Assembly: GCA_965250285.1 (NCBI GenBank)
Contig: OZ252299.1
Location: 6,184,918 to 6,248,917 of the forward strand
Reading direction: 5' to 3'
From: Myxococcota bacterium
Lineage (GTDB): Bacteria > Myxococcota_A > UBA9160 > UBA4427
DNA length: 64,000 nt
In this document: piece after piece, positions 10,063 to 35,213 of the stretch
Position numbering within the stretch: the stretch's first letter is position 1
Layout of the letters: every line of letters starts with the position of its first letter
Notes under the pieces: generated by a model
Databases searched by the model: none
Seen by the model: only the letters and a program-made list of their open reading frames with translations
What the model was told of the DNA's origin: nothing
Position numbers and translations under genes: made by a program

Positions 10063-10650
10063 ATGACAGCTACCCCCCCTCGAATCGCTGTTGCGTGTCT
10101 CGATGCGCGTTCGTTCGCTCACTCGATGACCCGCGCAATTCTCTGCGTGATCGCCGTCGCGTTATCGATCGCAGGCCCGGCCTCGGCCCAGGAGGTCAGC
10201 GCCGATGATATGCGAAGCCTCGATGAGCGCGTGCAGTCGATCAAATCGGATGTGCTCGAGATTGCGGCCGAGCTGACGCAGCTCGAAGAGAAGCTGCTGT
10301 ATCCGTCGAGCACACAGGTCGCCGTTTTCGTTTCGTTCGCCGATGGCTACGAAGGTGACCTCGACTCGGTCGAGATCCGCATCGACGGTGAGCCGGTCGC
10401 ACATCACGTCTACTCCTTCGAAGAGGTCGACGCGCTCGGCAAGGGCGGCGTCCAGCGCGTCTACACCGGCAACCTTCGCACCGGCGACCACCAGCTCGTG
10501 GTGTCCGTTCAGGCGACGTTGCCCGGCGGTCGCGCGGTCACCGGTGAGCAGACCTTCACGATCAGCAAAGAAGCAACGCCGAAGCTGGTCGACCTGCGCT
10601 TCGCAGCCAATGCGACTGGCGACCTGAAGATCGAGCTCGGAGACGGCTGA
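10063..10650 (+). CDS. Secreted hypothetical protein (coiled coil plus beta domain), first gene of the Agl-Glt-like cluster
   Basis: RBS-like GGAAGGG before the ATG, signal peptide ending ASA-QE, and a stop codon 1 nt before the next gene. Confidence 0.8.
   Translation: MTATPPRIAVACLDARSFAHSMTRAILCVIAVALSIAGPASAQEVSADDMRSLDERVQSIKSDVLEIAAELTQLEEKLLYPSSTQVAVFVSFADGYEGDLDSVEIRIDGEPVAHHVYSFEEVDALGKGGVQRVYTGNLRTGDHQLVVSVQATLPGGRAVTGEQTFTISKEATPKLVDLRFAANATGDLKIELGDG

Positions 10651-35213: not shown

Follow-up and report, generated by a model that had tools for sequence, protein, structure and literature searches.

Layout of the locus

The window, a stretch of 64,000 nucleotides from a Myxococcota genome, contains between positions 10063 and 35213 nine ORFs, a c-di-GMP riboswitch, and a single giant gene, all on the forward (+) strand. 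The nearest homologs of this genome that carry a name bear the label Myxococcota. The nine ORFs (10063-19710) are separated by gaps of 1, -4, 2, 3, 41, 3, -4, and 6 nt. The open frame of the giant runs from 19920 to 35213, and the database protein of 5,080 aa places its start at a TTG codon at 19971, 260 nt beyond the stop of gene 9. This arrangement of nine coupled genes, riboswitch, and giant gene on one strand had been described in the initial annotation, and it is borne out by the ORF coordinates, by Pfam and NCBIfam matches, and by the Rfam family RF01051. Positions 17000-36000 are covered by a single unbroken public contig with zero differences (the run may be the source of the assembly), and a scan of the + strand between 19650 and 20050 for promoters and terminators found nothing. 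The features are as follows:

10063..10650, +: gene 1, secreted protein of 195 aa with a signal-like N-terminus; a conserved member of the compact core, present in long-type and short-type loci (see below)
10652..12550, +: gene 2, GltC-like periplasmic TPR protein of 632 aa (TPR hits)
12547..15687, +: gene 3, GltD-like TPR lipoprotein of 1,046 aa (TPR hits; lipobox-like Cys20; position as Gura_3076)
15690..16325, +: gene 4, GltE-like TPR lipoprotein of 211 aa (lipobox-like Cys28; gliding_GltE E 2.5e-13, far under cut-off)
16329..16637, +: gene 5, small secreted protein at the gltF position, a predicted TonB-box-like adaptor
16679..17329, +: gene 6, AglR/ExbB/TolQ-like motor subunit (PF01618, E 1.4e-25)
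17333..17827, +: gene 7, first ExbD/TolR-like subunit (PF02472), with Asn23 at the position of the Asp of gene 8
17824..18333, +: gene 8, second ExbD/TolR-like subunit (PF02472), with membrane Asp27
18340..19710, +: gene 9, long-type GltG/TonB-like transducer (NF033768 over cut-off; gliding_GltG below cut-off)
19805..19892, +: c-di-GMP-I riboswitch aptamer, G20 type (RF01051, full-length match with 83 bits, the gathering score being 35)
19913..19962, +: predicted expression platform hairpin, pairing the GAGG (19958-19961) ribosome-binding site of the TTG start
19971..30119, +: passenger part of the giant (ORF aa 18-3400), with a long signal peptide, tandem Ig-like domains, and DUF11/isopeptide-D2 repeats
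30177..31619, +: predicted periplasmic anchor module, an N-terminal extension and three OmpA-like domains (PF00691)
32532..35213, +: predicted C-terminal outer-membrane beta-barrel of ~40 strands with an inserted ~90-aa domain (AlphaFold2 model)

The upstream genes form an Agl-Glt core

The identification of the upstream genes as an Agl-Glt core holds. We find PF01618, two copies of PF02472, a GltG-like protein matching NF033768, and clustered GltC/D/E-like TPR genes in an operon-like arrangement, with the gene order and similar sizes given in Table S3 of PMC3169522. The GltC/D/E-like assignments are based on domains, order, and sizes relative to that table rather than on direct alignment to Myxococcus xanthus proteins: Gene 2, for example, matches in position and size Gura_3077 (629 aa), which the table assigns to GltC/MXAN_2541. 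The same paper described aglR/Q/S and gltC/D/E/G as a clustered core that occurs in Gammaproteobacteria and Geobacter with function unknown, and bioRxiv 2020.07.22.216333 again calls its function unknown, in agreement with the earlier statement that compact cores without a clear function occur in nongliders. The window locus shares the set and order of this core (GltC, D, E, a small gene, AglR, Q, S, GltG) and nests among the gammaproteobacterial copies in a tree. In contrast, the available parts of PMC3169522 name no outer-membrane partner for the core, whereas the window locus adjoins a giant barrel gene.

Gene 1 has 3,691 homologs, and Pfam and NCBIfam searches assigned it no family. Gene 5 had been called GltF-like; it occupies the gltF position, where Table S3 of PMC3169522 has one unassigned locus tag, and it shares the motif G..I.GN.E.PK.L.IVPW with all 23 aligned homologs from long and short loci, but NCBIfam gave no match at a meaningful level for any family member, so that the label stands by position and motif and not by family.

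Gene 9 consists of a predicted cytoplasmic coiled coil of ~160 aa, a membrane helix at residues 164-182 (hydropathy), a Pro-rich linker, and a TonB-C-like domain. Its C-terminus matches NF033768 (AgmX/PglI C-terminal domain) with 57 bits, over a cut-off of 40, and also TonB_C. The N-terminal part has weak coiled-coil family matches at most, no usable match in an Atlas search, and no FHA hit in Pfam.

Among the aligned loci the first ExbD has Asn at the membrane position in 30 out of 30 and the second has Asp in 30 out of 30, whereas AglQ and AglS are both described as carrying the Asp (PMC9389320). We considered a one-Asp motor as a unique trait of this locus and rejected it, as Asn is also present in five of the seven first ExbDs that align clearly among 10 further Myxococcota loci. 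With a single proton site, a heterodimeric 5:2 motor would step differently.

Since all motor and transducer parts are homologous to Agl-Glt, one reading is surface motility, with the adhesin transported along the cell by the motor in the manner of Myxococcus or Flavobacterium gliding. In that case a cytoplasmic platform could be replaced by the coiled coil that gene 9 has in the cytoplasm. We consider this very unlikely. The barrel carries OmpA-like wall-binding domains, gene 9 has no FHA hit, and the core alone is deemed insufficient for motility in PMC3169522. The platform protein GltJ (ZnR/GYF) is also not found over cut-off in the window genome, where the best NF033761 match (E 1.7e-5) falls far short of it, with the caveat that NF033761 fails its own cut-off in a distant Myxococcota genome as well, which limits the sensitivity of this search.

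Two motor subtypes, one of them linked to the giant

A search with gene 9 splits the core into a long type, aligned from residue ~3 and 445-480 aa in length, and a short type, aligned from residue ~150 and ~320 aa in length. The gammaproteobacterial GltG homologs found in PMC3169522 (321-334 aa) are of the short type, in contrast to gene 9 of the window, and the supplement of that paper also contains Gura_3070 (484 aa) and GM21_0445 (505 aa), with lengths as in the long type.

The distribution of the long type follows that of the barrel. In the order of genome G152, 97 of 251 genomes have a gene 9 match, which is long in six; all six hold a barrel ortholog scoring 1,001 bits or more, compared with a maximum of 411 bits among the 91 short-only genomes. 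At the level of its class (300 scored genomes, one unscored), 59 genomes have a match and five the long type, each of the five with a barrel of at least 764 bits. Among 151 Myxococcota genomes the long type occurs in five (the window genome and four of nine in its family), and precisely these have a barrel of >1,100 bits. There are 16 distinct long-type genomes, G151 included, and a close barrel ortholog is found in every one. The giant or barrel lies directly downstream on one contig in 12 of them (in one case past a 3-kb insertion); the other four are interrupted by contig ends. These 16 genomes form one clade and are related to one another; the counts accordingly document conservation rather than independent origins. 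None of the 10 short-type loci that were read has an adjacent giant.

Metagenomes show the same association. Among the best 80 of 551 metagenome matches, a giant homolog lies within 6 kb in 58; a further 17 have no match with <1 kb of flank, and five have no match with a longer flank. Counting only those of the best 80 with at least 1 kb downstream, the giant homolog is within 6 kb in 56 of 61. Four of the five flanked negatives begin a long or secreted-looking ORF, and locus L112 is a true exception, with a long-type motor and no giant within 6 kb. The synteny of motor and giant thus extends across genomes for the long subtype and is absent from the 10 short-type loci, so that the interpretation in the initial annotation has to be narrowed to one subtype of the core.

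The long-type motors form a single clade (support 0.998; FastTree, 31 rows, midpoint root) in which the Myxococcota are nested among Gammaproteobacteria. The barrel tree mirrors this clade and most of its branching order (support 1.0, 18 rows). The linkage persists across inter-phylum transfer, fusion, insertions, and passenger swaps.

Several individual loci deserve mention. L001 and L002 are titled Spirochaetaceae, yet their motor proteins nest among the Myxococcota relatives of the window genome, and they are probably mislabeled. In G498 (L036:2-2176, L035:18179-19474) the long-type motor is separated from the passenger by a gene for a multihaem cytochrome c, and in L003 (8057-9597) the same place is taken by two ORFs that by eye resemble an AbiEi/AbiEii-type toxin-antitoxin pair. 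G338 (L006, L043, L044) has the apparent order motor, passenger A, barrel, passenger B, i.e., two passengers per barrel.

The subtypes differ in their outer-membrane partners

The proposal that the giant replaces the small outer-membrane barrels of the Myxococcus machine is supported by the complementary distribution of TIGR04565, which we take to be the GltA/B-like barrel family: It is found over cut-off in six of six short-only genomes and in zero of seven long-only genomes. No small GltA/B/H barrel scores over the TIGR04565 cut-off in the window genome. G398, the one genome with both motors that was tested, has a TIGR04565 barrel 19 kb from the short copy. G636 has no TIGR04565; its short motor branches beside the long clade, and it has a three-OmpA barrel. 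A clean test of core function is offered by the two motor subtypes, whose outer-membrane partners exclude one another. The role of the Agl-Glt core in nongliders has been open since 2011 (PMC3169522), and the giant is a specific candidate for its output.

As a separate observation, short-type cores (L014, L017, L018, L020, L022) adjoin TIGR04565, TlpA thioredoxins, DUF3570, ApbE, and haem proteins. The latter have hydrazine-synthase-alpha-like domains. Together, these neighbors hint at a redox-linked role for short-type cores.

The riboswitch is placed to act on the giant only

The RF01051 match upstream of the giant is the sole copy in the 6.25-Mb single-contig genome. At the base of the GGCAAA motif onto which we presume the numbering of position 20 to map, it has G, equal to the Rfam consensus, as do all five aligned copies. 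G rather than A at this position is the rule for c-di-GMP as opposed to c-AMP-GMP (PMC6140456), and the window riboswitch is accordingly of the G20 type, with c-di-GMP as its predicted ligand. Compared with the c-di-GMP-I (GEMM-I) family in general, the copy is full-length and has nothing unusual.

The hairpin that follows the aptamer has a fold z-score of -3.06, with unpaired probabilities of 0.00-0.04 at 19955-19961, and the GAGG that it pairs is 9 nt before the start. Both arms are partly conserved across five loci. The pairing of this site points to translational control of the giant, and the platform is predicted to be translational.

Of the Myxococcota genome loci that include the intergenic stretch, five of five have the riboswitch; none of the scanned long-type loci from Gammaproteobacteria does. 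Within the best 80 of 551 metagenome loci, a profile from the five copies matches 46. When 19 of these were retested, 18 were confirmed by Rfam, which gave no match in the one negative control. Because its position is 3' of the motor genes, the riboswitch can govern the giant only. The idea of a locus under c-di-GMP control therefore survives for the giant, upstream of which RF01051 lies, but not for the motor genes, and the control is not universal.

The giant protein: an Ig-like passenger and a predicted very large barrel

Pfam and NCBIfam matches in the giant comprise DUF11, isopeptide-D2, SdrD_B, OmpA, and barrel families. A model of passenger residues 66-990 is beta-sandwich throughout (pLDDT 81.9, 26 rows), and its best Foldseek match is to the Ig domains of PrgB (E 6.6e-17, TM 0.21); antigen I/II Ig stalks are matched as well, with low global TM. 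From the Ig stalks alone we infer that the giant is an adhesin; neither family searches nor Foldseek with the 66-990 model identified a ligand-binding tip. Passenger N-termini are variable, and many metagenome copies align from aa ~1856 only, while a C-terminal SdrD_B-DUF11 module (aa ~2790-3400) is conserved. We also asked whether the passenger C-terminus is itself an OmpA-like wall anchor, and rejected this (HHalign probability 58% over 45 columns; Pfam OmpA in 0 of 20 members).

The initial annotation had supposed that barrel, anchor, and adhesin are supplied in one chain. This applies to the Myxococcota, in which the giant is a passenger-barrel fusion, but not to the 10 gammaproteobacterial long-type genomes, in all of which it is split near aa 3400 into a passenger and an OmpA-barrel protein of ~1,720 aa.

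Downstream of the passenger, copies of the OmpA-like motif are found at aa 3516, 3679, and 3828. The C-terminal barrel (aa 4181-5097) was modeled with AlphaFold2 from 68 of the 150 listed homologs and loci (pLDDT 82.8, pTM 0.75). The secondary-structure list has 33 long strands past the inserted domain (barrel-model residues 205-292) and six to eight ahead of it, a total of ~39-41, and structural alignments that span barrel residues 27-917 imply that the first and last strands are neighbors. Strand number and closure are thus predictions from secondary-structure lists and alignment ranges rather than from inspection of coordinates. In a fold search no solved barrel superposed on the model (TM <=0.25). 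The barrel family, which has no name, comprises at least 883 clusters (E<=1e-30, 50% identity); a profile search found no PDB sequence match, and the top Atlas matches are unnamed clusters. The largest known barrel is that of SprA, with 36 strands (bioRxiv 10.64898/2026.03.07.710327), and the barrel of the giant, with ~40, is predicted to be larger than any solved. Barrels of >36 strands are also the class that the recent census in the same preprint, in its available part, says it left out.

A likeness of the inserted motif to SprA repeats was not supported by PDB-sequence profiles, NCBIfam, or fold searches, and we keep SprA as an analogy. SprA does not match the barrel by NCBIfam, Pfam, PDB profile, or in the fold lists, where absence does not amount to exclusion. 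Separately, the inserted domain (window 33072-33335) aligns to phage neck/connector proteins over 68 residues (Z 8.0, rmsd 1.8), a middling score.

A barrel with an inserted domain next to a TonB-like transducer and an ExbBD-like motor also suggests energized import: The Ig stalk would capture particles or polymers, and the motor would open the barrel in the manner of TonB by pulling the inserted domain out, for uptake of large substrates. The redox- and uptake-type genes beside short-type cores (DUF3570, TlpA, ApbE, cytochromes) and the cytochrome between motor and passenger in G498 would fit such a role. However, no plug-domain or carbohydrate-binding family matches the giant, an insert of 90 aa appears small for a 40-strand lumen, and control by c-di-GMP suits a gene for a surface lifestyle. 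We therefore hold import to be fairly unlikely.

Relatives without the long-type motor

Barrels of 667-1,003 bits occur without a long motor in nine genomes at the class level and in G258. In six genomes with a passenger-barrel pair (G643, G512, G621, G648, G564, and G258) gene 9 has no match of any kind, and a GltD-like gene is likewise missing from the three of these that were tested. More distant barrel homologs are found without a long motor in 36 of 151 Myxococcota genomes. Motor-less loci consist of passenger-barrel pairs whose passengers resemble that of the giant only over aa ~2790-3400. In seven loci (L024, L026, L028, L029, L030, L037, L038) the two-gene module comprises a DUF11/SdrD_B passenger of 2,200-4,700 aa and an OmpA-barrel protein of ~1,400 aa, and fused distant forms are present in 12 of 12 genomes of one Myxococcota family (f16). 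This widespread motor-less module looks like a separate, undescribed system for secretion or display. The barrels of G504 and G636 belong to the motor-linked clade, yet the assemblies of these two genomes contain a short-type motor only; the barrel of G504 sits on a 3.5-kb contig.

The existence of motor-less pairs indicates that basic export probably has no need of the motor. Of the activities that had been proposed for the machine (it "exports, deploys, moves or retracts" the giant), export is consequently the weakest, and moving is argued against by the wall anchoring, which speaks against gliding.

These pairs bear directly on powered secretion, in which the motor would energize threading or release of the passenger through a dedicated giant translocon. 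Type IX secretion provides the analogy: It has an ion-driven GldLM motor and a giant repeat adhesin, SprB, with a conserved C-terminal module. The window system is alike in its very large single-chain barrel, ion-driven motor, and giant repeat adhesin, in the two-gene layout of passenger and barrel with a conserved C-terminal passenger module, and in a barrel size close to the 36 strands of SprA; that the core could suffice for secretion has been suggested (bioRxiv 2020.07.22.216333). In contrast, we found no sequence or fold match to the type IX translocon, including no link to SprA by NCBIfam or PDB profiles. The window motor belongs to the ExbBD/TolQR family, the barrel has OmpA-like anchors, and passengers of 2,200-4,700 aa are paired with barrels in genomes without a long-type motor. 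Powered secretion is in our judgment unlikely.

Type Vb systems and autotransporters are similar in having a passenger gene beside a dedicated barrel gene, with fused forms too. However, the window barrel has ~40 predicted strands and OmpA-like domains and is neither a 12-strand autotransporter nor a 16-strand POTRA-bearing Omp85 (no POTRA or autotransporter family matches it), and its passenger has a conserved module at the C-terminus and Ig repeats rather than a beta-helix.

A block-wise alignment shows that motor-linked barrels have the N-terminal extension and three OmpA-like domains, while five motor-less or unlinked barrels have about one domain and no extension. This difference is relevant to whether motor and giant are mere neighbors, with a Tol-like envelope motor and an adhesin independent of it having been transferred together as one island. 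The long-type motors do all come from one clade, the barrel family has a much broader distribution than the motor, and the riboswitch separates the two units. Nevertheless, the linkage outlasts inter-phylum transfer, fusion, insertions, and passenger swaps, TIGR04565 is lost in a complementary manner, and the barrel has motor-specific extra domains. Neighborhood without mechanical coupling is thus highly improbable, and we are confident of a functional coupling of some kind between motor and giant.

A model for the motor and the giant

The Agl-Glt and Agl-Nfs machines of M. xanthus resemble the window system in their PMF motor, two ExbD-like subunits, TonB-like transducer, and TPR scaffold, and in combining an outer-membrane barrel partner with an adhesin. 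The differences lie in the parts: Myxococcus has an FHA domain, the small GltA/B/H barrels, and the VWA lipoprotein CglB, where the window has a coiled coil, a giant wall-anchored barrel, and an Ig stalk. The motor core and the riboswitch are already known; the subtype split, partner swap, and barrel family are new here. A literature search, with most subscription journals outside its reach, found no description of these three or of the motor-giant linkage, and the three are absent from the accessible parts of PMC9389320 and PMC12204202.

The account that we prefer, and to which we give an even chance, is that the window represents a distinct core subtype whose outer-membrane partner is likely a wall-anchored giant barrel with an Ig-stalk adhesin, and whose motor would pull the periplasmic end and so control display at fixed sites. 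A fixed site is favored over gliding by the OmpA-like domains together with the absence of GltJ over cut-off and of FHA, and control of display is favored over export because the motor-less relatives suggest that threading proceeds without this motor.

In this model, translation of the giant likely responds to c-di-GMP by way of the hairpin over the ribosome-binding site; the aptamer and hairpin are seen in the sequence, and the direction of the response is conjectural. The barrel, on the basis of its predicted fold, likely inserts in the outer membrane, with the OmpA-like domains binding peptidoglycan. The passenger of ~3,300 aa is likely passed outward while its C-terminal module would stay periplasmic. 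By homology, the ExbB5-ExbD1-ExbD2 motor likely drives the TonB-like product of gene 9, and this product likely takes hold of the gene 5 peptide as well as the GltD/E/C-like scaffold. An AlphaFold model of the Myxococcus machine (PMC11761067) has AglRQS force passing to GltG, which wraps GltD and pairs through its TonB domain with a strand of GltF, and has GltC binding the periplasmic N-termini of the barrels. In the window, the barrel would be held by the GltC-like protein at its N-terminal extension and additional OmpA-like domains, a putative contact that replaces the GltA/B tails, and each motor stroke would gate, tension, or let go of the tether.

A bolder extension seems to us possible but doubtful: A widespread and so far undescribed secretion and display system would be built on the largest known outer-membrane barrel (~40 strands), and one lineage would have harnessed the Agl-Glt motor to reel, extend, or release an adhesin on the 100-nm scale. 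The result would be a retractile, PMF-driven, c-di-GMP-gated tether, and it would reveal the ancestral job of the gliding core.

Flanking features of the window

Immediately after the giant, at 35383-38453, lies a DevBCA-type ABC exporter whose ATPase bears a C-terminal TerB-like domain. We rejected it as a part of the system, as it is not beside the barrel in related loci. Further downstream (41130-46142) are three long + strand ORFs of 686, 288, and 621 aa with no Pfam match, some of which may be shadows of genes on the - strand. On the other side, a complete rRNA operon and two tRNAs occupy 1431-7028, 3 kb upstream of the cluster, and rRNA is also found upstream in L002.
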